Shown: one piece after another, positions 6,964 through 58,082 of the stretch
Position numbering within the stretch: position 1 is the first letter of the stretch
Layout: every line of letters starts with the position of its first letter
Source of the DNA: an uncultured delta proteobacterium
GTDB lineage: Bacteria > Desulfobacterota > Binatia > Binatales > Binataceae
Assembly: GCA_963808235.1 (NCBI GenBank)
Contig: CAWEEQ010000004.1
Span: 781,084 to 845,083, forward strand
Direction of reading: 5' to 3'
Length of the DNA stretch: 64,000 nt
Position numbers and translations under genes: made by a program
The notes under the pieces: generated by a model
Databases searched by the model: none
Told to the model about the DNA's origin: nothing
The model's input: only the letters and a program-made list of their open reading frames with translations

Positions 6964-7392
6964 ATGGCGATCGAGTACACGATCCTCGCCGACGCGATCG
7001 TCATCGTCCACGCGGCATACGTAGCGTTCGTCGTGGGCGGACTCGTCGCGATTCTGATCGGCGGTGCGACGGGATGGCGATGGACCCGAAGCTTCGCGTT
7101 TCGAGTCGCGCACCTCGCCGCGATTACGCTCGTATGCATCGAGTCAGTCGTCGGCGTGATGTGTCCGCTGACTTCGCTCGAAGACTGGATGCGCGCGCGT
7201 GGCGGAGCCGCGCGGTATCGCGGTGACTTCGTCGGCTACTGGGCGCATCGCCTGATTTTCTACAACTTCCCGCCGTGGGCATTCGCGATCGTGTACTTCA
7301 CATTCGCGGCTCTGGTCGTCATCACATTCATTCTTCTACCGCCACGATGGCCCACCCGCACGCATCGTGCGCACACTAGCGATCCGCTCTGA
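6964..7392 (+). CDS. small integral membrane protein (DUF2784-like)
   Basis: 142 aa with 3-4 TM helices. Pattern resembles the DUF2784 family from memory. Confidence 0.5.
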   Translation: MAIEYTILADAIVIVHAAYVAFVVGGLVAILIGGATGWRWTRSFAFRVAHLAAITLVCIESVVGVMCPLTSLEDWMRARGGAARYRGDFVGYWAHRLIFYNFPPWAFAIVYFTFAALVVITFILLPPRWPTRTHRAHTSDPL

Positions 7393-7405: not shown

Positions 7406-10400
7406 CTATGCGTTGAGTTCGTCGAGGAGCGCCTTGGCGTCCATCAGGTCGGCAGTGTCGAAGCCCTCAGAGAACCAGTTGTAGATGTCGGCGAGCATCG
7501 CGCACGCCTCGTCGCGGCGGTCGGTACTCATCAGTATTCGCGCGAGCGAGGTCGTCGCGCGCAGTTCGAGCGATTTCGCCCCCTGCTGTCGGGCCTTCTT
7601 GATCGCGTGCTCGACCGACGCTCTCGCCAGAGCCGGATCGGAAGGACTCTGACCCAGGAGCAACTCGCCGCGAAGGCGATTAATTTCCGCTTCCCAGAAA
7701 CATTCGCCGCTGCGACGGACCAGGTCCAGGGCGTCGCCGATCGCCTTCAAACCATGCTCGATGCGTCCGGCTCTCAGGCACGAGTCGGCGAGAGTCGCGA
7801 GACTGAGCGTGAGCCACAACTCCTCTCGGTTGGCCGAAAGTGCATCGGTTTCTTCGCGTATCTGCCTTATTCCCTCCTCCGCTCTTCCAAGCTCGGTTAA
7901 GGCCCACCCTTTGACAACGCGCGCATGGCGCAGAACGTAGAGGAACCCCACGTCCTCCGCTGCGTTTATCGCGGCCCCGGCGATTTCCAGCGCAAGCTTC
8001 GGTTCCAGCATCATGCGATGAACCAGTGCCTTCTCGTACAAGGCGAAAGCTGCCGAGATGGCGTCTCCAAGTTCATTCGCAAGTGAAACGGCCCGTTCCG
8101 CGCATCGCCGCGCCGCATCGGGACGACCGCGCAGCCATGACAGCTGCGCGTCCCATGCATAGCCGCACACGGCCGGATGATGAGCGGTGTAGAGCGGGAC
8201 GGCAGCCGAACGAAGCTTCGACTCGAACAGCTTGAGCCCCCGCTCGACATGGCGTTGCGAGGCCTCCAGTTCACCTGCGGAAAGCGCCACCGACCAGTCA
8301 TGATGGATCGCCTCGAGAAGGAAAACCGGATCGGGGTGGCGATCGACGAAATCCCAGATCGGCTTCTGCCGTTCGCGGGCTCCCCTCAAGTTGCCGCCGA
8401 CGTAGAGCAGTCCAAACAATCCAACCAGTAGCGCGAACTGCTGCTCGGGTGTGGCTCCTGTCTCAGCAAGCCGCTCGGCGCGAAGATAGGCCCTCTCGGT
8501 TTCCGGCGCCGCCCACCCTTTGGTGGCCATCAGCGCGGGACCAAGGCTGGTTTGGAGCGCGAATTCGCGCCGGTCCCGCTCGGGGCTAGATGGCGTGCGT
8601 TCAAGTAATTCCAAAGCGGCGGTTAGGTTCCGCATCGCCTCGCCGTACGCCAGTCGCCGAACGGCTCGGAGACCTGCGCTTTCGAGATAGTCGAGTGCCT
8701 TCGCGGAATTTCCGCTGCGGCTGTAATGATGGGCCAGTTCGTCGAGGTAGTCGTCGATTGAATTTGCGTAGAGCCTCTCGAGAGCCGCACCGATTCGTCC
8801 ATGAAGTTGTCTGCGCCGTTCCATCAGTGCCGAGTTGTACGAGACCTCCAGTGTCAGCGCGTGCTTGAAGGTGTATTCAGAATCGCCGATGGCCGGCTGC
8901 TCGTAGATGAACTCGCCGAGCTGGAGGACATCGAGCAGCCGCCTGGTCTCGTCATCCGGGATCGAGACCACCGCGCGAATCAGCGACAGCGGAAATTCGC
9001 GGCCAATCACCGCCAGCGTCTGTAACAGGTCTTTGGCATCCTGCGGCAGGCGGTCGATGCGCGCGGCGAGAATCGCCTGAACTGTCGGCGGAATCTTCAA
9101 CGCCGCCAACGACCGCGTGAGCTTCACCGCCCCGCCGTCACGCACCAGCGCGTTCTCGTCGAACAGGACCTGCACCGTCTCTTCCATGAAGAACGGATTG
9201 CCCTCGGTCTTCTCGACAATCAGCCGCTTGAGCGGCGCGAGTTCGGTACCGTCGCCGAGCAGCGCGGACAACATCTCCTCGGCAGATTCTTTGCCCAGCG
9301 GGTCCAAGCGTAACTGAATGTAGTAGGTCTTGCTGTTCCACTGATGCGAGTACTCGGGGCGATAATTGACCAGCAGCAGGATCTTCGCCGTGCCGATGGA
9401 TTCTGCCAGCAGGTTCAAAAAGCCTTGCGTCTCCTCGTCGATCCAGTGCAGGTCCTCGAAAATCACCATCAGCGGCTGATTCATCGACTCTCGCAGCAGG
9501 ATGCGCTTGATCGCGTCGAGCGTGCGCCGCCTGCGCACCTCCCCGTCCATTTGCGCCAGCGGATCGTCGCCCTCGATAATGCCCAGCAATACGAAAAGGT
9601 ACGGCAACGTATCTTCAAGCGAACGATCGAGCGTCAAGACCTTGCCGTTGACTTTCTCGCGCCGCGTGCGCACGTCGTCATCCGAGGTGATGCGGAAGTA
9701 GCCGTGTAGCAACTCGATTGTGGGCAGATACGCAGACGCTTTCCCGTGAGAGACGGAAAAGGTCTCCAGCACCATCCAGCCCGACTGGTGCTTGGCCTTG
9801 AACTCAAAGAACAGGCGCGATTTGCCGGTGCCGGCCTCGGCCATCGCGGCGACAATCTGTCCGCGTCCAACGCGCGTGAGTTCCGACGCGTTGCGCATCG
9901 CCTCCATCTCGCGCTCGCGCCCGACGAACTTGGTAAGCCCCCGCCCCGCCGAGCGTTGCAGCCGTGTGCGCAACGGCCCGAGCCCGGTCACCTCGTAAAC
10001 ATTGACCGGCTCGGTGACTCCTTTTACTTTGGTCGGACCCAGCGGCTTGAGCTGGAAATATCCCTCGACCAGTTTGCTCGTCTGCTCACTGATCGCGATC
10101 GAGCCGGTTGGCGCGACGGCCTGCATCCGCGACGCCAGGTTGGTGGTGTGCCCAATCGGCGTGTATTCAACGTGGCCGCTGCCGGTTGAGATCGAGCGCA
10201 CGACGACTTCGCCGGTGTTCGCGCCGATGCGCGCCTCGATCGGCCTTCCACCCTCGGCCACCAGTTTGGCCGAGTAGCGTTTCAGCTCCTCCTGCATCCG
10301 CAGGCCAGCGTACAGAGCGCGCTGCGGATGGTCCTCGTGCGCAAGCGGTGCGCCGAACAGCGCGAAAATCCCGTCGCCGGTGGACTGCACGATGTATCCG

Positions 10401-10843
10401 TCGTAGCGGCGGACGGCGTCGATCATCAGCTTGAGTGCCGGATCGACGATCGCGCGAGCCTCTTCGGGATCCAAGTCCTGCTCCAACTCCGTCGATCCCT
10501 TGATGTCGGCGAACAGCGCCGTGATCGTCTTGCGCTCGCCCTCCAGATTTTCAGGGGCTGGTGTCTCAGCTACTAGAATCGGTGAGTCATTCGCTTTCTT
10601 TGCCGGGGCAGTGCCCGCGGGCGCTCCGAGCGCCGTGCCGCATTCGCCACAAAAGCGTTTGTCCGCTGGATTATCGGCGCCGCACTTCGGACAAAGATTC
10701 GCGAGCGCCGCGCCGCAATCACCGCAGAACTTCTTGCCGGCCGGATTTTCAGCTTTGCAATTCGAGCAGCGCATCGGCTTTGTCAGAAAAGATGAGCGAC
10801 TTGCCTCGTATATCACCGAGCGCGTTGAGGGACTAGCCGACAA
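7406..10843 (-). CDS. multidomain signalling protein: N-terminal double zinc ribbon, class III adenylate/guanylate cyclase domain, STAND/AAA NTPase, C-terminal TPR array
   Basis: Two CxxC..CxxC zinc ribbons (CSNCK..CGDCG, CPKCG..CGECG). Cyclase motifs FADIKGST, STGDGIFALFG, GANTGEVVV and GHTTNLASRMQ. P-loop AEAGTGKSRL. Long TPR-like helical repeats to the C-terminus. 1145 aa. Confidence 0.8.
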   Translation of the reverse strand: MSASPSTRSVIYEASRSSFLTKPMRCSNCKAENPAGKKFCGDCGAALANLCPKCGADNPADKRFCGECGTALGAPAGTAPAKKANDSPILVAETPAPENLEGERKTITALFADIKGSTELEQDLDPEEARAIVDPALKLMIDAVRRYDGYIVQSTGDGIFALFGAPLAHEDHPQRALYAGLRMQEELKRYSAKLVAEGGRPIEARIGANTGEVVVRSISTGSGHVEYTPIGHTTNLASRMQAVAPTGSIAISEQTSKLVEGYFQLKPLGPTKVKGVTEPVNVYEVTGLGPLRTRLQRSAGRGLTKFVGREREMEAMRNASELTRVGRGQIVAAMAEAGTGKSRLFFEFKAKHQSGWMVLETFSVSHGKASAYLPTIELLHGYFRITSDDDVRTRREKVNGKVLTLDRSLEDTLPYLFVLLGIIEGDDPLAQMDGEVRRRRTLDAIKRILLRESMNQPLMVIFEDLHWIDEETQGFLNLLAESIGTAKILLLVNYRPEYSHQWNSKTYYIQLRLDPLGKESAEEMLSALLGDGTELAPLKRLIVEKTEGNPFFMEETVQVLFDENALVRDGGAVKLTRSLAALKIPPTVQAILAARIDRLPQDAKDLLQTLAVIGREFPLSLIRAVVSIPDDETRRLLDVLQLGEFIYEQPAIGDSEYTFKHALTLEVSYNSALMERRRQLHGRIGAALERLYANSIDDYLDELAHHYSRSGNSAKALDYLESAGLRAVRRLAYGEAMRNLTAALELLERTPSSPERDRREFALQTSLGPALMATKGWAAPETERAYLRAERLAETGATPEQQFALLVGLFGLLYVGGNLRGARERQKPIWDFVDRHPDPVFLLEAIHHDWSVALSAGELEASQRHVERGLKLFESKLRSAAVPLYTAHHPAVCGYAWDAQLSWLRGRPDAARRCAERAVSLANELGDAISAAFALYEKALVHRMMLEPKLALEIAGAAINAAEDVGFLYVLRHARVVKGWALTELGRAEEGIRQIREETDALSANREELWLTLSLATLADSCLRAGRIEHGLKAIGDALDLVRRSGECFWEAEINRLRGELLLGQSPSDPALARASVEHAIKKARQQGAKSLELRATTSLARILMSTDRRDEACAMLADIYNWFSEGFDTADLMDAKALLDELNA

Positions 10844-23200: not shown

Positions 23201-23277
23201 GCCCCCTTAGCTCAGATGGATAGAGCACAGGATTCCTAATCCTGGGGCCGTGGGTTCGAATCCCGCAGGGGGCACCA
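23201..23277 (+). tRNA. tRNA-Arg (anticodon CCT)
   Basis: Acceptor GCCCCCT/AGGGGGC, T8A9, D-arm GCTC-AGATGGATA-GAGC, anticodon stem CAGGA/TCCTG with loop TTCCTAA, T-loop TTCGAAT, CCA encoded. Confidence 0.85.
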
Positions 23278-23304
23278 GGTTTTTCGCGACAGCAGGCAGC
23301 GGCG

Positions 23305-23757
23305 TTAAACAGACCCCGCCGGCGCAACCGTTCCGCGTATTACCAGCACCGGGCAGGCAGCTTCCCGAATGACATGCTCAGTGACGCTTCCCAGAACGAA
23401 ATGTCCGAGGCCCTTGCGCCCATGCGTAGCCATCACGATCAAGTCCACGCCGAGCTCCTGAGCAGCCCGCACGATATCAGTATCAGGCACGCCCGTTCTG
23501 ACATCGATCACATATTTCACAGCGGCCTTCACGGTCTTTCGGACTATTCGCGCGAGCCTCGCTTTCGCTTCCTTCTCCCACCGTGGCTCGGCGTCAAATG
23601 GTAGTGGCACGTCCATATCCTGGGTAGGCACTCTGGCAATGTGCAGTATGTAGAGAGTGGCATTGCTTTCTTTTGCGAGCGAGGTCGCCAAAGACAACGC
23701 AACGGTCGTATTTTCATCGAATTCGAAGGCACATAATATCTTGCTGTAATTCAGCAT
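23305..23757 (-). CDS. universal stress protein (UspA family)
   Basis: 150 aa. C-terminal ATP-binding motif VMATHGRKGLGHFVLGSV. Confidence 0.8.
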   Translation of the reverse strand: MLNYSKILCAFEFDENTTVALSLATSLAKESNATLYILHIARVPTQDMDVPLPFDAEPRWEKEAKARLARIVRKTVKAAVKYVIDVRTGVPDTDIVRAAQELGVDLIVMATHGRKGLGHFVLGSVTEHVIREAACPVLVIRGTVAPAGSV

Positions 23758-23792
23758 AGGTTCGGATTCGCCATTCCGGGCGGAAGCCGCCG

Positions 23793-25325
23793 CTAGAATT
23801 CCGCGAGCGATCGACCGGCCGCTCTATCGACCGCTGCCTTGGTCATGGAAAATCCGTAGAGGGCATCGGCGTACGCAGCATCGTCAAAAGTGTAGCTGCG
23901 CTGCGCATCTTCCAGTTCGATAATGCTTGTCAGGCCTGCTTCATAGCGCTTCTCCGCGAGTTCCAGTTCCGCATGTGAAGCAGCAAGCGTCCTTTCCGCG
24001 CGGGAGATGCGCTGAAGAGAAGCCTGCCAATTGAGAAACGCAGTACGGACCTGCAAGTTTATTTCTTGCCGCAGATCTTCGATCGCGCGCAGGATCGCGT
24101 GTTGCCGAAACCTCGTCTCCGCAATCTGGTCGGTAGTTAGAAAGCTGTTGAAGATTGGCCATGTGATCACGATCCCGACATTGAAATTATTCGCGGCAGG
24201 AGTTCCGGTCCCGAGCGCTGAGTAACCGCCCACCGCACTGGCGGTGGGATAGTAGTCACTCTGATACTCGACGATTTTCGCACCCATGGCTTTCGCCTGA
24301 TCCTGCAGCGCCTTCAAATCCGGTCTGGTTCGAAAAGCCGCGTCAAGCAACCCATTTAATGAGTCGTTGATCGGATGGTAGGTCAGGATGTCTGCTGGTT
24401 CAAACGCGGGTGCCGAGTCACTGAGACCCAGAGCATTGTCCAGCGCAACCTTTGCGTCTTCGTCATCATTACGGGCGTCGACGAGATGCAATTGAGCTCG
24501 CTCAACTTCGGCTTGCGTAACATAAGTATCGAGCTGTGGGCGCAGACCGGCGTTAGCCTTAACCTGAGCCTCGTGCAGATGATATTGACGCTGCTCCAGT
24601 GCCTTCTCGTAAACCTCGATCAGTCGTTTCGCTTGCAGCAACGCGAAGTATCGTTGCGAGACCTCGAAGATCAAATCAAGCTCAGTGAGCTGCTGATCGG
24701 CAGCCACGGCAGCAGCTTCAAACTGTCGCTCCGAAACAAATCCATGTCGGCGGCCGAAATCGACAAGAAACTGGGAGAGGCTCACGCCTCCCATGTAGTT
24801 ATTGCTGGTGTCCCAACCTTGCGAAGTATCATTCGCCGGGAGGTTGTGATTGGTTCCACTTATTCGCGGAAACGCTCCGTCCGGATTGTAGTAGCTCGCA
24901 TTGCCGATGCCATTGTCGGTGCTGCGCAAATATTGCGCGGCACCAAATAGTTGCGGACCCAGGTACGATCGCGCCTGGCCGATTTGCTCCTGAGCGGCGC
25001 TGGTGTTGTCCGCCGCTTCCTGGAGTCTCGGGTGATATTTCAGAGCGATCGCGATTGCTTCCTTGAGTGTCAATTGCGAGCCCGGCAGAATTGGTCCGGC
25101 GCTTGAGCCGGTCGGCTCGGATCGGGCCGTTTGGCTGGAAGTTGACGAGTTGATAGTTGACGCCGTCCCTAGCGACCAGCTGGTTCCTGGCCCCGGCGTT
25201 CCCGTAGCCGACGCCGCAGTTTGCGTTTCACCGAGTAGTACCTCCGCGGGGCCCGCGGCGTTAGCGACGCCATGAGCTGAGAGAAGGAGGTATGCGACAA
25301 GAAGCAGGATTCGCGAAGATTCCAT
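23793..25325 (-). CDS. TolC family outer membrane efflux protein
   Basis: Signal peptide. Two repeated coiled-coil/beta-barrel halves typical of the OEP family. Downstream of the MFP and RND genes. Confidence 0.75.
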   Translation of the reverse strand: MESSRILLLVAYLLLSAHGVANAAGPAEVLLGETQTAASATGTPGPGTSWSLGTASTINSSTSSQTARSEPTGSSAGPILPGSQLTLKEAIAIALKYHPRLQEAADNTSAAQEQIGQARSYLGPQLFGAAQYLRSTDNGIGNASYYNPDGAFPRISGTNHNLPANDTSQGWDTSNNYMGGVSLSQFLVDFGRRHGFVSERQFEAAAVAADQQLTELDLIFEVSQRYFALLQAKRLIEVYEKALEQRQYHLHEAQVKANAGLRPQLDTYVTQAEVERAQLHLVDARNDDEDAKVALDNALGLSDSAPAFEPADILTYHPINDSLNGLLDAAFRTRPDLKALQDQAKAMGAKIVEYQSDYYPTASAVGGYSALGTGTPAANNFNVGIVITWPIFNSFLTTDQIAETRFRQHAILRAIEDLRQEINLQVRTAFLNWQASLQRISRAERTLAASHAELELAEKRYEAGLTSIIELEDAQRSYTFDDAAYADALYGFSMTKAAVDRAAGRSLAEF

Positions 25326-25385
25326 TGTTAGCTCACCCGCCTGTTCGGCGATCTATTTCGTGTTGACCCCCTTGGCTAGTTCAGA

Positions 25386-26594
25386 TCAGTCGGAGCTTTG
25401 AACTGGCGCCGACTTAGTCTGCACATCCCGGTTCTCTATCCTACAATCAACTGGGACTCCCGGAGTGAGAGTGCTGCTATAGGTCGTCACTACCAGCGAC
25501 TTCGCCGACACCCCCGAGGTTACCTCTACATAAGCGCCGTTGTTGATCCCCGTTTTAGCCGGAACTTCGGCAAGACGGCCGTTGTCTACAATCAATAGGC
25601 GCGCTGAGCCTCCCGATCCCTGAATCGCTGAGGCCGGTACACTCAGAGCGTCAGGATGCCGGATCAGTTCGATGCTGACGTGCGCATAGCTTCTCGGATA
25701 GATCAGGCGGTTCGGATTATCTATGTCGACCTCAGTCAGCATTGTGCGAGTTGCGAGATCGAGCGACGACGCATACCTGGCGACGATGCCATTGAAGACT
25801 CGGCCAGGAAATTCGTCGAAGTGCAGCATCGCCGGGGTGCCACGATGGATGAACGGATATGAAGCCTCCGGAACGTAGATATAGACTCGTAATTTATCTA
25901 TGTCGGCGAGCGTCAGGATCGGGCCGCCACCCTCGCGATGCCCTCCGGCGCCCTCAGTAGCTCCTGGGGAAATCAACCCCGAGGTTTCGTCAACTCCAAG
26001 GTCACCGCCGCCGGCGCGGATCAGAGCCCCGGGATCGGCGAATCGCCCAGTGATTACTCCATCGAAGGGCGCGATGATTTTTGTATATGAGAACATAGTC
26101 TGCAGGGTTGCAACCGCGGCTTGAGCCTCACGATACTTGGCATAAGCCATGTCGACGTCTTGCTGCGATATCAGCCGTGAGTCACTCTGCTGGACCTTCT
26201 TCAAACGATCATAAGTTATGCGCTCGATTTCGAGGCTAGCCTGCGAGCGCGTTAGGTTCGATTGCAGTTCCGGTACTTCGATTTCGGCCAGCACCTGACC
26301 GGTCTTGACCGAGTCGCCCTTGTCCACGCTGATACTCTTCAAGTATCCGGTGACTTTCGAATGAAGAGCAGCCTCGTAGAAGCCCACAACGTCGCCTGGG
26401 AGTTCGATACTTTTGTCTATTTCTCCACGGCGTGGATATACAACGTTCACTATCGGTCGTTGAGTCGTAGTCATGGGCGTGACAGGCGTGTCGCAGCCGC
26501 TCGTGCATAAAACGACGATCGATAAGATAGTCGTTACTGCCCAGCCTAAACCCCTCACTGTCGTTTGCTCCCCGGGAACTAGTAGCATGGACAT
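25386..26594 (-). CDS. efflux RND transporter periplasmic adaptor (membrane fusion protein)
   Basis: Lipobox/TM N-terminus. Biotinyl-lipoyl-like hairpin (GDSVKTGQVLAEIE), coiled coil, beta-barrel. Confidence 0.8.
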   Translation of the reverse strand: MSMLLVPGEQTTVRGLGWAVTTILSIVVLCTSGCDTPVTPMTTTQRPIVNVVYPRRGEIDKSIELPGDVVGFYEAALHSKVTGYLKSISVDKGDSVKTGQVLAEIEVPELQSNLTRSQASLEIERITYDRLKKVQQSDSRLISQQDVDMAYAKYREAQAAVATLQTMFSYTKIIAPFDGVITGRFADPGALIRAGGGDLGVDETSGLISPGATEGAGGHREGGGPILTLADIDKLRVYIYVPEASYPFIHRGTPAMLHFDEFPGRVFNGIVARYASSLDLATRTMLTEVDIDNPNRLIYPRSYAHVSIELIRHPDALSVPASAIQGSGGSARLLIVDNGRLAEVPAKTGINNGAYVEVTSGVSAKSLVVTTYSSTLTPGVPVDCRIENRDVQTKSAPVQSSD

Positions 26595-29500
26595 CAGCCT
26601 CGGTCCTCATTCGGCGTCTGCACGGCCGCTGCCCGTTCGATCCGCCGATAGAAGAACTCGTAAATGCAAGGGACGAGAAACAATGTAAGTACGGTGGACA
26701 CCGCAAGACCGCCCACCGCGGCCCTTGCCAGGGGAGCCGAAGCTTCTGATCCCTCGCCGAGCTTCAACGCGATCGGCATAAGACCAGCCACCGTGGCCAA
26801 GGCGGTCATCAGGATTGGCCGCATTCTTATGCGGGCGGAATCGATCGCCGCGCGTCTTAGCTCATGTCCCTGGCGGCGTCGTTCATTGGCGAAGTCGACG
26901 AGCAAAATCGAATTCGACACAACGATACCGACCATCACGATGATCCCCATGAACGATTCTATGTTGAGTGTGGTTCCTGTCGCCCACAACGTCCAGATGA
27001 CGCCTATCAATCCCATCGGGACCGCGAACATGATGATGAAGGGGTCCAGGAAAGACCGAAATTGAGCCACCATCACCAGGTAAAGTAGAACGACCGCCAG
27101 CGAGAGACCGAAGCCGAAGCTCGAGAAAGATTTCTGCATCGAGCTTACGGCGCCGCGGTACCTGACGGAGACGCCCGGAGGGAGAGTCATCTTGCTCACC
27201 TCGCGCTGGATTTTCTCCTGCGTGCCACCCAGATCCTGGGTGCTGGGTGCGACGAGCAGATCGACAATCCGCTGAATGCTGTAATGATCTGCTTCGGAAG
27301 GGTGGGATTCGGGAGCAATAGACGCCACATCACGCAGCAAAAGGCTCTGCGCGTGTCCCGTTTCCTTGTTCACAGTCTCGATAGGGATGTTTTGCAGCAC
27401 CTCCAGAGAATCAAAGCCATTCTGGGCGCCTAGGTACTGCACCGTCAGAAAGTAGTCGTCCTTGTTTGCGCGATCGATCCAGATCGATGGTTTAATGTAC
27501 AGGTTTGAATCGAGCGCGGTGATGACGTTCTGAATGACTTCCTGCTGCGCTACGCCCAAACGCGCCGCTCTCACGCGGTCGACCTTGATGTTTAGTGTCG
27601 GATAGTCCAATTCCTGGGCGATGAAGCTCTGCGAAACTTGAGAGAGGGCGTTGATTCTCGCTTGAAGTTCCTTCGCCGCATTATGCAACTCGGTAAAGCT
27701 ACTACCGGCAAATTCGACATCGATGGGAGCTATCTTCCCGAGATTGAGAACGGAGTCGATTATGCTGCCTGAGGAAAACAGGGTACGGGCGTTCGGCAGT
27801 TGTATAGGGAGCAGTTGCTTCAACCGGGCTACATAGTATTGGGTCGGATGTCGGTGACCGGACTTGAGCGCCACCTGCATGAAACCTGAATCCTGGGCCG
27901 AGTTAGGCGAGTAAATCGCCGATATGCTGGGGGCAATTCCGATATTCGAAACGACCATGTCGAGCTCGTCCGGCGGAATCACCTTTCTGACAAGGTCTTC
28001 GATTCGACGCGCCATATCGGTGGTCAGTTCAATACGAGTACCGGCTGGCGCGCGAAAATTGATCGTGAACATTCCCGCATCGGTCTCCGGAAACAACTCG
28101 GTACCGAGACGTGGATACATCGCGAGACTTACGACGAACAGAATCGTAACCCCCACGATGACCACAGACTTGTGGTCCAGCGCATTTTCAAGAAGACGCT
28201 CGTAAGCGGAGGCAAAGCGCTCATACGCGCGATTGAAGATCGCGAACACCCCGGAAGATTCGCCGTGCTCCGCCGCGAGCGCCTGTTCGCGGGTGAGAAA
28301 ACGAGCACAGTAGATCGGTATTACGCTCATCGCGACCAGATACGACGCGGCCATCGATAGCACCACCGCCAGCGCCAGCGCACTAAACAGGTACTTCGAG
28401 ACTCCAAACAGAAACATGACCGGGAAGAAGACGATGCAGGTGGTAACGGTCGACGCCAGAACCGGTAGCGCGACCTCCTCGGCCCCATCACGTGCTGCAG
28501 CGTGCGGTTCCTTGCCTTCGGCAAGATGACGGTTGATGTTCTCGAGGACAACCACCGAGTCATCGACTAGTCGGCCGATCGCAAGCGCGAAGCCTCCAAG
28601 GGTCATGATGTTCAGCGTCGAGCCATTGAAGTATAGACCGAATGCCCCTGCCAGAATGGAAAGTGGAATCGAAAGAAAAATCGCAAAGGTCGATCGGAAG
28701 CTGCCGAGAAATATAAGAATCATGAGCGAGGCCAGAACTGCACCGGATATGGCCTCATGTTCGAGACTATCTACCGCCTGTCTGACGTAGATGGACTGGT
28801 CTAGTATGGTCTTCAGTTTCATCCCGGCTGGCAGGCCGAAAACGTTTGGAATCAGTTGCTTGACGCCATCCACCACCGAAATGGTATTGGCGCCGGCTTG
28901 GCGAAGAACCGGGATGTATACCGACGGTTGCCCGTTAATCAGCACCGTATTGTATTGAATCTGAGCAGAGTCTGTGACCTTACCGACATCATCCATCAGC
29001 ACGGGGGCCTGACCACGTCCTATCTTCACTGGCACCTGGTTAATATCGGGCACCTTTTCGATCAAGCTGTTCGAATAGATGTAGTAATCCTTGGATCCGA
29101 TCTTGACGTCGCCTGCGGGCAAGATGACGTTGGACGTGTCGAGCGCACTGACAACGTCCATTAGCGACAGGCCACGCGCTTGCAGCGCTTGCGGATTTGC
29201 GTATGCCATCACCTGTCGAAACTTGCCGCCGAAGGGAATCGGTACCGACGCGCCCGGCACCGTCGCCAGCTGATTGCGAACGTTGTAGCGGGCTTGATCC
29301 TCGAGTTGCGTCTCGTTGTAACCTTTACCTCCGAGCGTGACCAACACCACCGGCAGAGATGATGCGTCGTACTGCAGCACCAGCGGCGGGAGCGTCCCCG
29401 GCGGCAGAACCCCGAGATCGGCCTCCGCCAAGGTTCCCATCTGCGCGGCGGCAGCCGCAACGTCGGTGCCCGGCTGAAAGAACACTTTGATGATGCTCAC

Positions 29501-29755
29501 ACCCGACAGCGAACGCGACTCGATATGCTCAATGTTGCTGCCCAACGTAAAGAATCGCTCGTAGCGAAAGGTGATGTTGTCTTCCATGTCGAGCGGCGGC
29601 ATGCCCTGGTAAAAGGTAGCCACCACAACCGCTGGGATTTTAATGTCCGGAAAGATGTCCACCGGCATCTGCGTAAACGCCGTTGCACCCAGAATCACGA
29701 TGATCAGCGCTCCGACAATGATTAGGTACGGATTGCGCAGCGAGAAACTTGGCAC
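26594..29755 (-). CDS. efflux RND transporter permease (AcrB/CzcA superfamily)
   Basis: 1053 aa, 12 TM with two large periplasmic loops. Adjacent to the MFP gene (1-nt overlap). Confidence 0.85.
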   Translation of the reverse strand: MPSFSLRNPYLIIVGALIIVILGATAFTQMPVDIFPDIKIPAVVVATFYQGMPPLDMEDNITFRYERFFTLGSNIEHIESRSLSGVSIIKVFFQPGTDVAAAAAQMGTLAEADLGVLPPGTLPPLVLQYDASSLPVVLVTLGGKGYNETQLEDQARYNVRNQLATVPGASVPIPFGGKFRQVMAYANPQALQARGLSLMDVVSALDTSNVILPAGDVKIGSKDYYIYSNSLIEKVPDINQVPVKIGRGQAPVLMDDVGKVTDSAQIQYNTVLINGQPSVYIPVLRQAGANTISVVDGVKQLIPNVFGLPAGMKLKTILDQSIYVRQAVDSLEHEAISGAVLASLMILIFLGSFRSTFAIFLSIPLSILAGAFGLYFNGSTLNIMTLGGFALAIGRLVDDSVVVLENINRHLAEGKEPHAAARDGAEEVALPVLASTVTTCIVFFPVMFLFGVSKYLFSALALAVVLSMAASYLVAMSVIPIYCARFLTREQALAAEHGESSGVFAIFNRAYERFASAYERLLENALDHKSVVIVGVTILFVVSLAMYPRLGTELFPETDAGMFTINFRAPAGTRIELTTDMARRIEDLVRKVIPPDELDMVVSNIGIAPSISAIYSPNSAQDSGFMQVALKSGHRHPTQYYVARLKQLLPIQLPNARTLFSSGSIIDSVLNLGKIAPIDVEFAGSSFTELHNAAKELQARINALSQVSQSFIAQELDYPTLNIKVDRVRAARLGVAQQEVIQNVITALDSNLYIKPSIWIDRANKDDYFLTVQYLGAQNGFDSLEVLQNIPIETVNKETGHAQSLLLRDVASIAPESHPSEADHYSIQRIVDLLVAPSTQDLGGTQEKIQREVSKMTLPPGVSVRYRGAVSSMQKSFSSFGFGLSLAVVLLYLVMVAQFRSFLDPFIIMFAVPMGLIGVIWTLWATGTTLNIESFMGIIVMVGIVVSNSILLVDFANERRRQGHELRRAAIDSARIRMRPILMTALATVAGLMPIALKLGEGSEASAPLARAAVGGLAVSTVLTLFLVPCIYEFFYRRIERAAAVQTPNEDRG

Positions 29756-30419
29756 GATGCAAACTCCCTGTCACCGGCGAAGTGATTACGCCGGTGGACT
29801 TTGACTTGACTATAACCGCCCGCGAATATCGGGCGCGTGTTAGCGAATCTGAAGTTTGCTTACAGCGGGTCTTGGCTTTCCGCGCGCGAGGGGAGCAATT
29901 TGAATCGTCTTATGAATGGCTGTACGGAAGGAGTCGCGAATCTGAACCTCGGTAAGGGCCTCACGGCCAGGTTGTCCGATACCGACGTCAAGTACTTCGG
30001 GAATGAAACATCAAGCGCTTGAGAGCCGGAATCGAGGTCGGGCTGACTTGACGAGGCCTTGGTGAATCTCTGTGCACCGCTAAGCCTATTCTGCTCGCAC
30101 GATCCGCAAGACACGCGAAAGTGTGGAACCTGCAATCGAGGGGTGAAGGCCACGATGCTCGTCACGATGAGAACCGCGGCAACCAGTTGCAGATGTAGAC
30201 GAGAAAACATTACTCCGACGCTCATCTTATCGTTCCGCATTTTCGAATGCAAAGCGGAAGAATCTTTCCGCGTCTCGCGAAGATTTCCGCATTCGGCAGA
30301 CAACGTTTATTGCAGTCTGCCCTCTCGTTCAATCACGCCAGGAGCAGGTGCCAACTTTGCGGCGTATGATGTATACGTCGTGAAGCTTTTCAGAGACGCG
30401 AGTCCGAGCGCTGGGCCGG

Positions 30420-30875
30420 ATGCCCTTATTCAAGAAAATTCTTTGTCCTCTCGATTTCGATCAGAATTCGCTTCTGGCGCTCCAGGTTGCGACCGAACTG
30501 GCGCGGGAACGCAAAGCGACCCTCGATTTGCTGCACGTCGTCTCGATACCTTCCGGACCCGAGGTTGCGTTACCCTTCGCCAAAATGGAGAAGGCCGCAC
30601 GAACCAGGCTTGAGCGGCTGGCGGGCCAAAAAATAGGCAGCAAAGTCTCCCATCGCGTCGACGTATCGATGGGCGATCCGGCCGCCGAGATCATTCATAC
30701 CGCGAAAAAGTTGGATACCGATCTTATTGTGATGGCAACCCACGGACGGAAAGGACTCCGTCACCTTGTGCTGGGAAGCGTAGCCGAACGCGTGGTGCGG
30801 GAAGCCCCGTGCCCGGTGCTCGCGATCAAGTCGAAAGCTCCGGCCGCGAAGATCAAAAGACCTCGATCGAAATAA
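30420..30875 (+). CDS. universal stress protein (UspA family), paralog of 23305-23757
   Basis: 151 aa. VMATHGRKGLRHLVLGSV motif. Alignable along its full length to the other Usp. Confidence 0.8.
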   Translation: MPLFKKILCPLDFDQNSLLALQVATELARERKATLDLLHVVSIPSGPEVALPFAKMEKAARTRLERLAGQKIGSKVSHRVDVSMGDPAAEIIHTAKKLDTDLIVMATHGRKGLRHLVLGSVAERVVREAPCPVLAIKSKAPAAKIKRPRSK

Positions 30876-31153
30876 TTCGCTGTATGACGTCACAGCTCAA
30901 ACGGTCGAAATCCTCGCGGTCGTCGCGAAATCAGAACTGTCGCGCTTTCCGCGGTTGGCAGAGAGGGCCAGGGGATCGAAATCTGGTTAAATTCAAGCCA
31001 TGAGCGGTGATGAAGGGAATATGGGGATCCGCCAAAAGGGTTTCACTGATACAAGAGCAATAATGAGGCTGCTTAAGGCTTGACTAATTTCTTGTCTTGC
31101 TCCATAGTGATGCTGCCACCGAAAGGGCGGGCAAAAACGGGGAAGGTAGGATA

Positions 31154-31399
31154 ATGCAACGATCACGAGAAAATGATGAGACTCAGCCGGAATTCTATAC
31201 TGTCGGCCAGCTCGCGGACTTGCTCCAACTGACGCCGATGACGATATACCGGATGGTCAGACGCGGCGAGCTCGCCTGTCATGCGATCGGGCGAATCAAA
31301 CGCTTTCGCCGCGGCGACGTAGAGACGTTCCTCGAGAATTCCAGGCAGCCGGCCTCGGAAGCCACCGCGGCTCCGGCTCCTCGCCGTCTCGATGGCTGA
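31154..31399 (+). CDS. excisionase-family helix-turn-helix DNA-binding protein (HTH_17 / MerR-superfamily Xis-like)
   Basis: RBS GGAAGGTAGG. Core YTVGQLADLLQLTPMTIYRMVRRGELACHAIGRIKRFRRGDVE. 81 aa from ATG 31154. Confidence 0.7.
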   Translation: MQRSRENDETQPEFYTVGQLADLLQLTPMTIYRMVRRGELACHAIGRIKRFRRGDVETFLENSRQPASEATAAPAPRRLDG

Positions 31400-31663
31400 A
31401 GACTCTCGGCGAATAAGTTCCAGCAGCCCCTGAGATTACCGCTACTTCCTGAGCGCTCGCGGGTCAGTACGCGTTCGTGCCCGGCGGTAATTTTTCCCCC
31501 AGCTCTTTCCTCAAAACAGATTCTGCGAACGAGTGTAACCACCAGTACAAACTGGTTGCAGGGAAGAGTCGCGTCTATAGAAGATGGAGGGCGAGCATTG
31601 TAGAAGCTTGACAGGAGCGTTGCATTCCCAAAGGATAGCGCAGCAGTCGATTACGGGGGAAAA

Positions 31664-31882
31664 ATGCAACGCTCACGTCCGAAAGAAGACGCCCAGCCCG
31701 AGTTCTACACCGTTGGACAACTTGCCGATTTGCTGCAACTCACACCCATGACCATTTACCGCATGGTCAGGCGCGGCGAGTTGGCTTGTCACGCGATCGG
31801 TCGCATCAAGCGTTTCAGACGCGGCGATGTCGAGGCTTTTTTACAAAGCTCGAGGAAACCAGCGGCAAGCGCACCAAGCTAA
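31664..31882 (+). CDS. excisionase-family HTH DNA-binding protein, paralog of 31154-31399
   Basis: Identical 46-aa core with many synonymous nucleotide differences. 72 aa. Confidence 0.7.
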   Translation: MQRSRPKEDAQPEFYTVGQLADLLQLTPMTIYRMVRRGELACHAIGRIKRFRRGDVEAFLQSSRKPAASAPS

Positions 31883-32160
31883 GACTTGCTCGTCTTACGC
31901 TCGGCGCCTGAATCGCCGTTGGTTTGGTGTTCCGGTTCCCTGGCTACGCTCCCGCCCGCCGCGACCCATTGATCGACGACTGGCACTTCAAAGCGCAGAT
32001 CCCGTCCAACTCTAATAGCCCGCAACTGGCCTCTTCGCACCAGCCTGCGAACGGTAGCCGGATTGACATGCAGGTAGTCGGAAACCTCACGCAATGTGAG
32101 CATCCTTGCTGGCATATGCTCGCCCCTGGCTGACTCCATTCGACCCGGATTCATCCGCAA
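31879..32160 (-). CDS. excisionase-family HTH DNA-binding protein (third, divergent member)
   Basis: LTLREVSDYLHVNPATVRRLVRRGQLRAIRVGRDLRF is the same HTH_17 pattern. Start ambiguous among several in-frame Met. Confidence 0.55.
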   Translation of the reverse strand: MRMNPGRMESARGEHMPARMLTLREVSDYLHVNPATVRRLVRRGQLRAIRVGRDLRFEVPVVDQWVAAGGSVAREPEHQTNGDSGAERKTSKS

Positions 32161-32511
32161 GCTCGCAAAAGTCTCATCAGGTTTGTCCTCGCCGTTTCGG
32201 TGACCGGAGGTGGCCGGAGGTCTCTAAATCTATTTGACTGTCTAATGCGCATTATCATTCAAATTACTTGACGACGACTCATCTATTGCTTGATGACCAT
32301 CATCTGCTTTCTCAAACGTAGCAAGATTTCAAAGACTAATCAAGCCATGAAAATATTGTCAAGTTAAGATAAAGCTGTTAGAATTCTAAAGCGTGGCATC
32401 TTTATTTACTTTATTTTATGTCTCATTGCTTTGTTTATTCTTTTATGGTACAGTCTTACATAGCGTGCATCCCTTACGATTCATGCGTCGAATCGCGTAC
32501 TGACCTGAGCA
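32161..32511. promoter_or_regulatory. AT-rich (about 35% GC) intergenic island upstream of the EPS locus
   Basis: Strong compositional contrast with the 60-65% GC surroundings. 350 bp without a credible ORF. Confidence 0.5.
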
Positions 32512-33252
32512 GTGAGAAAAAAAACCATGAAACGAAAACTATTGGTCATAGCTCTTCTGTGTTGTGCGCAGCTTCTGTTCGGATGCTCCGCGAAGGACCC
32601 GGAGGCTACCGATATCAAGGGTGTGTCGATGGCGCCGGTGTCGCCTGCCTGCCAATTCACTTCGGTCGACGACCAGTTTCGATCATACCGGATTCAGCCG
32701 GGCGACCAGCTCGACATCAGTTTTTATATGAGCCCCGAGTTTGACCAGGACCTGACCGTACGACCCGACGGCGACATCTCGATGCCGGTGGTCGGCAATA
32801 TTCACGTGCAGGGACTAACCCCGGTCGGGCTCGAGAAGAATCTCAATCAGCTCTATTCGCAGGAGTTGAAAGATCCGAAGACCACGGTCCGCATCGACAA
32901 GAGTCCAAGCCAGGTCGTGTACGTCGAGGGCCAGGTTGGCAAACCCGGCGCGGTGCCGCTGCAGCCCGGGATGACCGCGATCCAGGCGATCGCCGCGTCG
33001 GGCGGAATGAACGATAACGCCGGACCGAGCCGGGTGATTCTCATAAGACGCGACGCGTGCGGGAACGCGCACGGGCAGCCTCTCAAGCTCGACAAAGTGC
33101 TGAACCAGAAAAATAACGAAGAAGATGTGGCGCTGCTGCCTTCGGACATCGTGGTCGTACCGCGCAGCGGGATTGCCCAATTCGATCTCGACGTGAAGCA
33201 GTACGTGCGCGACGCGATGCCGGTCGAAGTCTACGCCGCGCCGCCATTTTGA
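32512..33252 (+). CDS. polysaccharide export outer membrane protein (Wza/GumB family lipoprotein)
   Basis: Lipobox LLFGCS. Poly_export and SLBB-like segments (IQPGDQLDISF..., YVEGQVGKPG). Confidence 0.8.
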   Translation: MRKKTMKRKLLVIALLCCAQLLFGCSAKDPEATDIKGVSMAPVSPACQFTSVDDQFRSYRIQPGDQLDISFYMSPEFDQDLTVRPDGDISMPVVGNIHVQGLTPVGLEKNLNQLYSQELKDPKTTVRIDKSPSQVVYVEGQVGKPGAVPLQPGMTAIQAIAASGGMNDNAGPSRVILIRRDACGNAHGQPLKLDKVLNQKNNEEDVALLPSDIVVVPRSGIAQFDLDVKQYVRDAMPVEVYAAPPF

Positions 33253-53434: not shown

Positions 53435-53852
53435 TTCTATGACATATAGTTAGCACCAATCCGCGCCACCGAGTCGTAAGGATCCTCGCGATCGATCACC
53501 CCAATAGCTGGATTCGCGAACATCAGCGCGTCCTCGCGGGTATCGCCGGCAGGGCGCTGAAGCCCTGAGCCATGGCGACGCGCTCCGTCGTACCATTAGC
53601 TACGCCGCGTTTCGATTGCTCGATAGAAAGCCCGATCGCCAATCCAGTCAATATCGTTGAGTGTCAACGCGGCGACACTTTCTAGCTTTTCTTAATTTTT
53701 AGGTACAGGATTAATTGAAATCCACCCTTCCCCTTGTGTACCTACTTCACCCAAGACATTTCGAGAATTCGACTGCGGATTGTGTCCTTAGCGCGTTGAC
53801 CTGTTGACCGGTGCCGGCGTGTGTAGGGCGAGAGCTGGGGAGTAGCTCTGGT

Positions 53853-55274
53853 ATGGCAGATCGGTCGCGATGGCAGATTCCGGTTACAACGGTACCCGCA
53901 ATCGTACTTGTGTTGCTTGGTTACGATGGCTTGAACTCGCTCATTGGGGGAGCGCAGGCGATCGTTCCAACGCTGACTTACGTTTCAACATCGAATGGCG
54001 CGACCTTTTTCGTATCTCTTGATGGCAGAGATTCGGGGGCGGGTAGCTCGGGTTCTCCGTGGCGGACGATTCAAAAAGCGGCCGACACGTTGCAGCCCGG
54101 GCAGACCGCGATAGTAGCGGCCGGCAACTACGGCGAGCGGGTGGAGATTTCGCATTCGGGGACGCGGACGGCTCGGATCACATTACGAGCCGCGAGCGGT
54201 GCGGACGTTCAGCTCCTGGGCTTCGATCTTACCGGAAGCAACTGGGTGCTGAGCGGGTTTGATATCTCCACCCGCAGGAACGGGCGCCAGGGCTATGGGA
54301 TCCACGTGTCCGGTTCGGCCTCGCACGACATTATTCAGAACAACTACATCCATGAACTTTGCCGCGAGGGGATTTTCATGGAGTCGGGAGTCTCGTACAT
54401 TTCGGTTCTCAACAACCGCATCTGGCGGGCCGAGATGGCGGGTGCGCAGGTCGACGGCACCGACGACCTGATCGAAGGCAACGAAGTCTGGGGAACTCAG
54501 CAGGAGCCGGTCCGGGCCGGTGGAATCTATTCGGGATGCGTAACGCCCGACGGCGCCGACGCGGACGCGTTCCGCTTCTTCGGGCAGCATAACGTGTTCC
54601 GATCCAACTACGCGCACGACGTCTACACCGCGTTGCCGACCAACCCCGATCCGCATACCGACTGCTTTCAGACCTGGGGCAGCACCGCGATGAAGGTGGA
54701 CGACATCCTCATCGAGCGAAACGTCTGCCGCTGGCCGGTCGCGTCGACCAAGGTGGACGCGTCGACCGCGATGATCGAGGGAATCGACGGGCCGGTGGGA
54801 ACAGTGACCTTCCAGAACAACCAACTGTCGAATATGCGGCAGGGGATTGTCGTCGGGAATAAGGTCGAGGCGCTGAAGATCTACAACAACACCTGGGACC
54901 ACATCGTGGAAGAAGCGCTGATCTTCAACGACACGAGATCTCCTGCCGACGAGATCATCAACAATATTTTCTATGACGTCGGCGCTGGCGGCGATGCTTA
55001 CGCGTCGGTTCCGAGCGGCAGCCCGCTCTTCCGGAGCAACGTCTTCTACATGCCGGGCGGTGCCAGCGTTGGCACTTATCCGAGCGTGGAGCCCTATACA
55101 AGCGTCGATCCGAGGTTCGCCAACCCCGGCGACTCGACCGGTGCCGGCGCCGATCTGCATCTCCAGGAAAGCTCGCCGCTCAAGCGCTCCGGGGTAACGC
55201 TTCCCCAGGTTACCGATGACTACTACGGAACCAGCCGCGCCGGTGCGGCGTACTCAGTGGGTGCCGCGCGATGA
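53853..55274 (+). CDS. secreted right-handed parallel beta-helix protein (pectate-lyase-fold; putative polysaccharide-active enzyme), paralog A
   Basis: Signal-like N-terminus. GSSGSPWRTIQKAADTL..AGNYGERV beta-helix cap and repeated NN.I-type coils. GGGGAG RBS before ATG 53853 (the ORF track starts at GTG 53811). Confidence 0.65.
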   Translation: MADRSRWQIPVTTVPAIVLVLLGYDGLNSLIGGAQAIVPTLTYVSTSNGATFFVSLDGRDSGAGSSGSPWRTIQKAADTLQPGQTAIVAAGNYGERVEISHSGTRTARITLRAASGADVQLLGFDLTGSNWVLSGFDISTRRNGRQGYGIHVSGSASHDIIQNNYIHELCREGIFMESGVSYISVLNNRIWRAEMAGAQVDGTDDLIEGNEVWGTQQEPVRAGGIYSGCVTPDGADADAFRFFGQHNVFRSNYAHDVYTALPTNPDPHTDCFQTWGSTAMKVDDILIERNVCRWPVASTKVDASTAMIEGIDGPVGTVTFQNNQLSNMRQGIVVGNKVEALKIYNNTWDHIVEEALIFNDTRSPADEIINNIFYDVGAGGDAYASVPSGSPLFRSNVFYMPGGASVGTYPSVEPYTSVDPRFANPGDSTGAGADLHLQESSPLKRSGVTLPQVTDDYYGTSRAGAAYSVGAAR

Positions 55275-55509
55275 TTGTCACTATGGGGACACCGTCGCGC
55301 GCAGTCGGCCGTGGACGGGCAGACCGGTTGCGCGATCCCTCATGTGTCAGGGGCGTAGCCTCTCTGCGACAGTTTGTTGCACCTTCCGCAAACAAGGAAC
55401 CAGTTGTCTTAGTGAGTTGTAGCGAATCACTACAACGCGCAACGGCACATTTCGTGCTCCGCAGACTTGTTGGATTCTCGCGTCGCTTTAGGTTGATCGG
55501 GTTCGCATC

Positions 55510-55583
55510 GGAGCGTTGCTGTCGCTCCGGTGCGGACCAATTCAAAGCTCCAGCCGGAGCGTTGCTGTCGTTCCGGCGCGGAC
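55510..55583. repeat. two 28-nt direct repeats, each a 6-bp stem/7-nt loop hairpin (ggagcgttgctgtcgctcc)
   Basis: Read directly: copies at 55510-55537 and 55556-55583 match at 26 of 28 positions. Confidence 0.7.
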
Positions 55584-55772
55584 GGAAACAAACGGAGCGC
55601 GCCGGCAAATGCCCCGCGCTCAGGGGAAAAGGAGTGCGACACTGATGTATCGGTAACTTGCGATGGAGTGCTGTCCATCGCAGGTACCGATCCCACATTG
55701 CACCAAAGCGTTTTTAAGTCAGGCGCCACGTGTTGCCTTTAGTGATCGTGGCGTCGGGCTTGGGGGAGAAAA

Positions 55773-57860: not shown

Positions 57861-57877
57861 TCGGCGAAAACGAAACA

Positions 57878-57914
57878 GTTGGGGGCGACTGGATACTCAG
57901 TCAGCGCCCCCAAC
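57878..57914 (+). terminator. 10-bp GC-rich perfect stem hairpin (gttgggggcg ... cgcccccaac) 18 nt after the paralog B stop
   Basis: Read directly. No U-tract follows, so assignment as an intrinsic terminator is tentative. Confidence 0.4.
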
Positions 57915-58082
57915 AAATGTCACTGTGGAGACATTTAGATAGTCAATAACGATAGTCAGAACCAGGCTGGAACGAGGTCCGATAGTAGGCGCTGGCTGTA
58001 GATTGCCGGGGAATTGGGTTTTTTAAGCCAGGCACCGCGTGTTGCCTTTAGTGGTCGTGGTGCCGGGCTTGGGGGAGAAAAA

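Follow-up and report, generated by a model that had tools for sequence, protein, structure and literature searches.

An ancient tandem pair of BldC-fold proteins with identical DNA-binding domains, probable regulators beside a polysaccharide cluster in Binatia

Introduction

BldC of Streptomyces is the closest match in the Protein Data Bank (PDB), by sequence as well as by fold, to the proteins described here. It is a 68-residue monomer consisting of this winged-helix fold only; it controls Streptomyces development and binds AT-rich direct repeats, AATTxxxx(C), as asymmetric head-to-tail multimers (PMC5859096). Homologues of BldC are widespread, according to its authors. The same fold occurs in excisionases, or recombination directionality factors (RDFs), of phages and integrative and conjugative elements, such as Pukovnik Xis (4J2N), RdfS (8DGL) and the lambda Xis type. 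RdfS is reported to oligomerize and also to regulate transcription (PMC11963761). We analyzed a 64,000-nucleotide stretch of a Binatia genome (contig CAWEEQ010000004.1), called the window below, in which two genes at positions 31154-31882, copy A and copy B, encode proteins of this fold in tandem. They form an ancient conserved pair and are probably regulators beside a polysaccharide cluster, not remnants of a mobile element.

The resemblance to BldC extends beyond the fold. Like BldC, A and B are winged helices of ~70 residues (MerR/Xis-like) with neither an effector nor a dimerization domain, and both systems are chromosomal, highly conserved and situated near AT-rich, target-like DNA. However, identity to BldC is only ~24%, and BldC is a single gene, whereas the window encodes a tandem pair with identical domains and a third paralogue. 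The phylum also differs, and the neighbors here are genes for extracellular polysaccharide (EPS) instead of development. Excisionases and RDFs share the fold and the Pfam/TIGRFAM family with A and B, but no integrase or other mobile-element gene was found in the scanned open reading frames of the window, att sites are missing, and the chromosomal synteny of the genes is conserved. Classical MerR regulators share the topology of the N-terminal winged helix-turn-helix (wHTH), with HiNmlR and SoxR matching by fold. The MerR_1 score of 16 bits lies below the cutoff of 21.6 and does not support membership as a full-length MerR protein. MerR regulators have a coiled-coil dimerization helix and an effector domain, whereas A and B lack both and end 10-20 residues past the wHTH.

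Stand-alone HTH_17/BldC-like regulators are already known, and what is new here is a member in an unstudied phylum. The natural pair with the same domain and different tails, together with an orphan partner gene, is unusual. To our knowledge, the Binatia (Binatota) are uncultured soil bacteria in which no regulator has been studied, and we know of no 'same domain, different tail' paralogue switch described for BldC-like proteins. A literature search for a link between excisionase-family proteins and exopolysaccharide regulation gave nothing specific.

Identical Domains Encoded by Saturated Codons

The studied interval runs from the ATG of copy A through the stop codon of copy B. Copy A (31154-31399, plus strand) encodes an 81-residue stand-alone HTH_17 protein of the excisionase/BldC fold whose tail is long and acidic, the A type (ETFLENSRQPASEA...RRLDG). 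The product of copy B (31664-31882, plus strand), also a stand-alone HTH_17 protein, has 72 residues and a tail of the B type, which is short and basic (EAFLQSSRKPAASAPS). Residues 12-57 (PEFYTV...RGDVE; PEFYTVGQLADLLQLTPMTIYRMVRRGELACHAIGRIKRFRRGDVE) are identical between the two. This core of 46 amino acids, or 47 when Q11 is included, is encoded by codons 12-57, at 31187-31324 in A and at 31697-31834 in B, both on the plus strand. An earlier note on this DNA had reported 46 identical residues encoded with about 30 synonymous and no nonsynonymous differences. The ungapped codon alignment, in which no frame error appeared, bears this out: 31 of the 138 core nucleotides differ, spread over 29 codons, and no difference changes an amino acid. 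Third positions account for 29 of the differences and first positions for two (CTC/TTG and CGC/AGA). Outside the core, residues 6-10 contain five replacements and residues 58-72 contain eight.

A formal dN/dS calculation by the Nei-Gojobori method gave a proportion of synonymous differences (pS) of 0.87 for the core, at which dS is undefined (saturated). The corresponding nonsynonymous value (pN) of 0.019 arises solely through path-averaging of the two double changes, since true replacements are zero. For a test of saturation, the core peptide was back-translated twice with the codon usage of 13 confident genes of the window. Independent back-translation is expected to make 27.2±3.1 codons differ, and the observed number, 29, does not depart from this (P = 0.34). 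The two cores are as different as synonymous change allows, and no more, and their nucleotide likeness is only what the protein imposes. The same comparison leads us to reject selection for nucleotide divergence of direct repeats (recombination avoidance). DNA homology between the copies is confined to 31153-31324 and 31663-31834 (76% identity), and the flanks share nothing. No further copy was found in the 64-kb window except the antisense gene C.

An assembly artefact is ruled out because the arrangement recurs elsewhere. Among the related loci, which are designated here by L and a number, the independent metagenome contig L031 matches the window at 99.9% identity and has the same arrangement of A and B and the exact copy B protein. 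L029/L030 represent a relative ~80% identical to the window and have the same layout. The gene for copy A is called at 81 residues in L029 and L031 too, and the A and B cores of L029 are likewise identical, with 26 synonymous and no nonsynonymous codon differences.

The earlier note had treated this pattern as a mark of the pair. The pattern is real, but it is not confined to the pair: comparison of the window copies with orthologues in other species gives 18-26 synonymous codon differences and 0-3 replaced residues (six in L012). Among 22 A/B sequences, drawn from 12 Binatia genomes, 39 of the 46 core columns never vary, yet each of the 44 degenerate columns uses at least two codons. Zero replacement with saturated synonymous change is a property of the whole family, not of the A/B pair. 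Because orthologues show the same, it says little about this pair in particular, and such a pattern in paralogues should be compared with orthologues before a pair is called special. In the same loci, the proteins of neighboring genes are much less conserved (60-88% identical overall), with identities of 70-77% for Poly_export, 73-79% for GNVR, 64-71% for C and 81-90% for the efflux proteins.

Distribution and Age of the Pair

A word-indexed search for relatives returned 129 clusters, all from metagenomes or metagenome-assembled genomes (MAGs). A genome scan placed them in Binatia/Binataceae MAGs, many of which are labelled 'delta proteobacterium'. In an exhaustive HMMER search, 1780 small HTH_17 proteins form a continuum, within which the entire A/B clade is one 50%-identity cluster. 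The gene order in L001-L009 and L011 is A-type (tail ETFLENSRQPA...), B-type (tail EAFLQxxR[KR]P...) and a convergent C. Each type of tail is conserved, and both paralogues are found in the same positions in at least ten further genomes. L012 has A and C without B, and the duplication is therefore placed after the split of L012 and before the radiation of the other genomes.

The codon differences tell the two lineages apart. A of the window differs from A of L029 at 14 synonymous codons and from B of L029 at 24; B of the window differs from B of L029 at 20 and from A of L029 at 30. Since A of the window is nearer to A than to B of L029, A and B are separate orthologous lineages. The saturated synonymous sites, together with positional orthology in other genomes, rule out gene conversion or a recent duplication. 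The earlier proposal of an old duplication under strong purifying selection without gene conversion agrees with these observations. Its further suggestion that the two products have non-redundant roles gains indirect support from the separately conserved tails and from two unrelated promoter regions, each of them conserved.

Tandem copies recur in the family, in L014 and L017, and a third, partial copy exists in L002. The latter (L002 7331-8609) is 5'-truncated, with a core from MTVYRMV on, and stands directly before C. It is preceded by an insertion of ~1.1 kb whose sequence is matched in L006, L007 and L012 by DNA ~4 kb upstream of A. In L001, B (7029-7241) seems frameshifted, its N- and C-terminal halves being read in different frames, which probably reflects an indel error of a long-read MAG rather than a pseudogene.

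Fold and Comparison with BldC

All three proteins of the window exceed the family cutoffs. A, B and C score 50.2, 51.7 and 43.3 bits with PF12728 (HTH_17; cutoff 27), and 45.3, 45.0 and 42.0 bits with TIGR01764 ('excisionase family DNA-binding'; cutoff 28.8). They also match PHROG 66/1840, which hold excisionases. In an AlphaFold2 model of A, the core (residues 11-60) has pLDDT values of 86-92, and both tails are disordered or of low pLDDT. The modelled topology is that of a winged helix, beta-alpha-alpha-beta-beta-alpha (strands E14-15, E43-45 and E48-52; helices H17-24, H28-37 and H53-63), in a single domain covering residues 14-63.

A PDB sequence search with E < 0.1 returned just two entries, 6amk and 6ama, both of BldC (best E = 0.004). 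The top Foldseek matches, which had target-normalised TM values of 0.65-0.81 and root-mean-square deviations (rmsd) of 1.1-2.2 Å, were BldC-DNA complexes, mycobacteriophage Pukovnik Xis, the RdfS excisionase and RacA. Against the PDB, chains of 6ama and 6amk took ranks 1 and 4-9 (target-normalised TM 0.69-0.79, rmsd ~2 Å over 49-51 residues). Their E-values are only ~1e-2 because the domain is short.

A sequence alignment of A and B with 6amk and 6ama was used to map the published BldC residues (PMC5859096). The BldC interface residues F21, V23 and W31, which face L11 and L43, correspond to L24, L26 and M34, and to F14 and I45, all of which are family-invariant. The essential G44 corresponds to G46 and the guanine-contacting R30 to R33, and both are invariant in the A/B family. 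The R22-E16 salt bridge of BldC is replaced by Q25-Q19. A and B plausibly work like BldC, yet they are not demonstrable members of the BldC subfamily. Four homologues from the exhaustive search (P0188, P0210, P0212 and P0222) are proteins of 480-800 residues with 4-6 tandem HTH_17 repeats. Such covalent domain arrays fit the idea that the fold acts as head-to-tail multimers.

Position at the Head of a Polysaccharide Locus

The downstream side can be seen in 13 genomes, and in 12 of these the same EPS genes come after the gene order A→B→←C. A, B and C stand beside Poly_export, GNVR and AAA_22-LysM genes in the window, L029, L001-L008 and L011, and so do A and C in L012, which has no B. The cassette is among the most conserved features of the Binatia EPS locus. 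Its syntenic anchor is the first EPS gene (32527-33252, plus strand), which encodes a polysaccharide export protein with Poly_export and SLBB domains and matches TIGR03027 (XrtA/PEP-CTERM export family) below the cutoff. In a distant clade (L014, L017 and L021, two of these loci with tandem pairs), the genes lie between Wzy_C-GT2-deacetylase genes and a gene for a beta-helix protein.

The upstream neighbor varies between genomes; in L003, for example, it encodes a beta-helix protein, and in L029 it is ArsR-like. The earlier note had placed the three genes exactly between an efflux block and the leader of the EPS locus. The EPS side of this placement is general, but the efflux block is near the cassette in only three genomes.

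Promoter-like Elements of A and B

The two copies have separate upstream regions. The promoter-like element of copy A (31078-31108, plus strand) consists of GCTTGACT, 17 nucleotides and CATAGT, and a consensus scan reads it as TTGACT-17-CATAGT at 31080-31108, with the -35-like hexamer TTGACT at 31080-31085. Around it, GCTTGACTAAT-N-AATAGTGAT (31078-31112 in the window) is near-invariant in 12 related loci, and the surrounding DNA cannot be aligned. The upstream region of copy B, with its promoter-like element (31564-31653, plus strand), contains AAGCTTGACAgg...CATTCCCAAAGGATAG at 31597-31632 and a -35 hexamer TTGACA at 31608-31613. Conservation by blastn in seven loci reaches back to ~31564, and an alignment of 11 loci shows an invariant GCTTGACA with a conserved block downstream. 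The upstream blocks of A and B are unrelated save for GCTTGAC. Purine runs resembling Shine-Dalgarno sequences precede the ATGs of both genes. Each copy has its own -35-like hexamer and putative ribosome-binding site, as had been noted before.

A weakly predicted, terminator-like long hairpin with a U run follows A (31433-31495, plus strand). In the minimum-free-energy and centroid structures, AGAUUACCGCU pairs with GGCGGUAAUUU, after which come UU and a C run, and the z-score of the whole segment is not significant. A tentative terminator of B (31902-31928, plus strand), found by consensus scan within the 3' end of C, comprises CGGCGCCTGAATCGCCG and then the T-rich TTGGTTTGGT, and is a chance-level match for the region. 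An Rfam search of 30000-33000 found no credible known RNA element.

Gene C and the AT-rich Leader

The third, divergent HTH_17 protein is encoded antisense, as the earlier note had it, by gene C (31879-32160, minus strand; PF12728, TIGR01764), which is convergent with B and divergent from the EPS operon. Its true start is likely the ATG at 32139 (MESARGEH...), which would give 86 residues. Orthologues of C in nine loci have a near-invariant core and start with MELLAKGQHM. B and C overlap by 4 nucleotides (31879-31882), as they also do in L029; in other loci the gap between them is just 5-15 nucleotides. Because the two genes converge and overlap, the terminator of one must lie inside the other. 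Their transcripts must overlap, which hints at antisense or transcriptional interference of the two genes.

An intergenic leader (32161-32526) separates C from the first EPS gene. The AT-richness attributed to it before is borne out by a GC content of 0.35-0.39 at 32200-32500, against 0.59 for the window. The part at 32306-32508, which carries promoter-like hexamers on both strands, is conserved at ~70% nucleotide identity over ~200 bp in eight loci, despite the saturation of synonymous sites. A consensus scan finds the promoter-like match TTGTCA-17-TAGAAT at 32356-32384. A 14-nucleotide element, GTCGAATCGCGTAC (GTCGRATCGYGTAC), at 32487-32500 on the plus strand, 27 nucleotides upstream of the ATG of the EPS export gene, is near-invariant in 12 of the 12 loci examined. 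It may be a protein-binding site or a sequence-specific RNA site. A conserved RNA hairpin in this element (predicted, 5 bp) was rejected, as no covariation or compensatory changes were seen and only the 3' arm is sequence-invariant.

Proposed Function and Alternatives

A regulatory role is most likely for A, B and C. As the earlier note suggested, such a role, rather than that of an excisionase, would fit the chromosomal synteny and the precedent of BldC. We think it reasonably probable that the ancient tandem pair and the antisense paralogue form a chromosomal, BldC-like regulatory cassette heading a Wzx/Wzy-type EPS locus in Binatia, with A and B having the same DNA specificity and different promoters and tails. 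The identical DNA-binding domains would recognize the same DNA sites. The proteins differ in the N-terminal arm, the C-terminal tail and the promoters only, and would be differentially expressed isoforms. These may compete or co-assemble on shared sites, most plausibly their own promoters and the AT-rich EPS leader. The fold and the similarity of interface residues suggest binding as BldC-like head-to-tail multimers. Such multimers would constrain nearly the whole surface of the protein and would explain why 39 of the 46 core residues do not change. C would, from its divergent position, be the best candidate for a direct local regulator of the EPS operon.

The cassette offers a testable entry to the control of extracellular polysaccharide in Binatia, with three proteins of ~80 residues and three short promoter fragments. 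It extends the little-studied stand-alone BldC-like winged helices by a case beyond Actinobacteria, and a natural pair with identical DNA-binding domains permits a clean test of tail function.

Several observations weigh against a BldC-like cassette for EPS control. No operator or binding site was found: the only motif common to the promoters of A and B and part of the leader is GCTTGAC. A shared operator in these three regions was rejected, because GCTTGAC/CTTGAC could not be distinguished from a -35 element and shows no enrichment in the window (12 occurrences versus 9.5 expected). The BldC DNA contacts K26 and H46 correspond to M29 and I48 in A and B. The BldC model NF033787 (cutoff 77 bits) is not reached; A and B do not match it at E <= 0.01, and C scores 26.2 bits. 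In L009, the cassette abuts the Usp-efflux block after C instead of the EPS locus. One related subclade adjoins RecD2 and a histidine kinase, and another sulfite reductase, instead of EPS genes. Finally, conservation this extreme is unusual for a local regulator and a better fit for a pleiotropic one.

The last point leads to the strongest alternative, a pleiotropic or nucleoid-associated, architectural role of A and B at many genomic targets, like that of BldC, with a position next to the EPS genes that is historical rather than functional. Regulators with many sites typically show near-absolute conservation of their DNA-binding surface, as is seen here across genera. Other Binatia subclades have family members in non-EPS contexts, the fold neighbors RacA and Xis are architectural proteins, and each genome shows a single locus of the family. 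However, the synteny of cassette and EPS genes persists in 12 of 13 genomes despite a shuffled upstream flank, the EPS leader is itself conserved at ~70%, and a second clade is also found amid polysaccharide genes. On balance we regard this alternative as rather unlikely. Pleiotropic action and local EPS control are not mutually exclusive.

More speculative, and in our view doubtful, is a model in which A and B form mixed head-to-tail filaments on the same direct repeats, and the ratio of A to B tails decides between activation and silencing of the EPS genes. This ratio would be set by the two separate promoters and by the convergent transcription of B and C, and in most Binatia an orphan protein, D, would serve as accessory factor. 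Gene D is found in all other loci, where the spacer between A and B is ~700 bp and encodes a conserved 110-residue protein on the minus strand (for example at 6343-6672 of L003), convergent with A and divergent from B. The protein has the motif CC..PCxxCS..RF..F..FGR.P..D.LFF. Loci named as bearing D are L003, L013, L014, L017, L019, L020, L022, L023 and L025, and relatives of D with 30-40% identity accompany an HTH_17 gene in distant subclades too. The 67 metagenomic clusters of D are all annotated as 'hypothetical'. In the 64-kb window, tblastn finds no D, and the spacer between A and B (31400-31663) is 264 bp. The compact, D-less spacer is common to the window, L029, L030 and L031, and D has been deleted from it in the window lineage; D could lie elsewhere in the genome.

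The primary function of the HTH family might also be tied to D, as a two-gene HTH-D module of which the window lineage is a degenerate variant, A and B persisting after the loss of D. D or a distant relative lies 0.3-3.5 kb from an HTH_17 gene in every subclade examined, often in divergent orientation and also in non-EPS contexts, and the deletion in the window and L031 and in L029/L030 would be the loss that such a scheme supposes. But A and B are fully constrained without a neighboring D, with zero replacements in the window and L029, so that their function is independent of a neighboring D. D also suggests no mechanism, having no Pfam, PADLOC or PHROG match and, despite a confident AlphaFold2 model (pLDDT 80), no fold match in the PDB. 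We consider this explanation improbable.

It is less probable still that A and B are redundant duplicates kept for dosage only. Their identical DNA-binding domains and the recurrence of tandem copies (L014, L017 and the partial copy of L002) would be in keeping with it. Dosage duplicates in direct repeat are usually homogenized or lost, but the synonymous sites of A and B are saturated, the two form separate orthologous lineages, and each copy retains its own conserved promoter and tail signature across at least ten species.

Least credible is a classic Xis or RDF of an integrated element, for which membership in TIGR01764 and PHROG 66/1840, a tRNA-Arg gene 8 kb upstream and the variable upstream flank would speak; we rejected it because Pfam scans of the 45 larger open reading frames of the window, found no integrase, as the earlier note had said, and no transposase or phage genes, because the cassette keeps its place at a housekeeping-type EPS locus from species to species, and because such conservation at a single locus per genome is unlike mobile-element cargo.

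Two further candidates were rejected. MAD1 (NF047737; PADLOC mad1), the helix-turn-helix protein of the anti-phage methylation-associated defence system (MADS), shows weak similarity to the HTH domain, 26-36 bits overall. The NF047737 scores of 33.7-35.9 bits compare with an equivalog cutoff of 80, PADLOC mad1 gives 26-32 bits, and no other MADS components are nearby, the neighbors being Usp, efflux and EPS genes. An AlpA-type antiterminator for the long EPS operon was dismissed because AlpA of P. aeruginosa is not a 70-residue wHTH and is absent among the PDB matches; it is an 8-helix, Q-like protein with an N-terminal ring (PMC9371919).

Neighboring Features of the Window

Downstream of the cassette, the polysaccharide locus extends over ~28 kb. 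It encodes the Poly_export/SLBB protein, a GNVR chain-length protein, an AAA_22-LysM ATPase, a sugar aminotransferase and a priming glycosyltransferase, together with a flippase, a GT4 protein, a Wzy-like protein, a deacetylase and beta-helix/Big_7 proteins. EPS genes within 32527-60323 match XrtA/PEP-CTERM families for export, chain length, ATPase, glycosyltransferases and an O-ligase-like protein, all below the curated cutoffs. The locus ends with three beta-helix/Big_7 proteins (53811-60323).

Upstream of the cassette, the window contains a TetR gene, tRNA-Arg(CCT), a Usp gene, a minus-strand OMF-MFP-RND efflux operon and a second Usp gene. The Usp-OMF-MFP-RND block (23201-30875) adjoins the tRNA-Arg(CCT) gene and is bracketed by the two Usp paralogues. 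It is found downstream of C in L009 (7806-12219) and ~4 kb upstream of the cassette in L011 (1-1852), and it moves around the cassette. At 7406-10843 (minus strand), and unrelated to the cassette, the window encodes a 1145-residue signalling protein with a double zinc ribbon, an adenylate/guanylate cyclase domain, AAA_16 and TPR.

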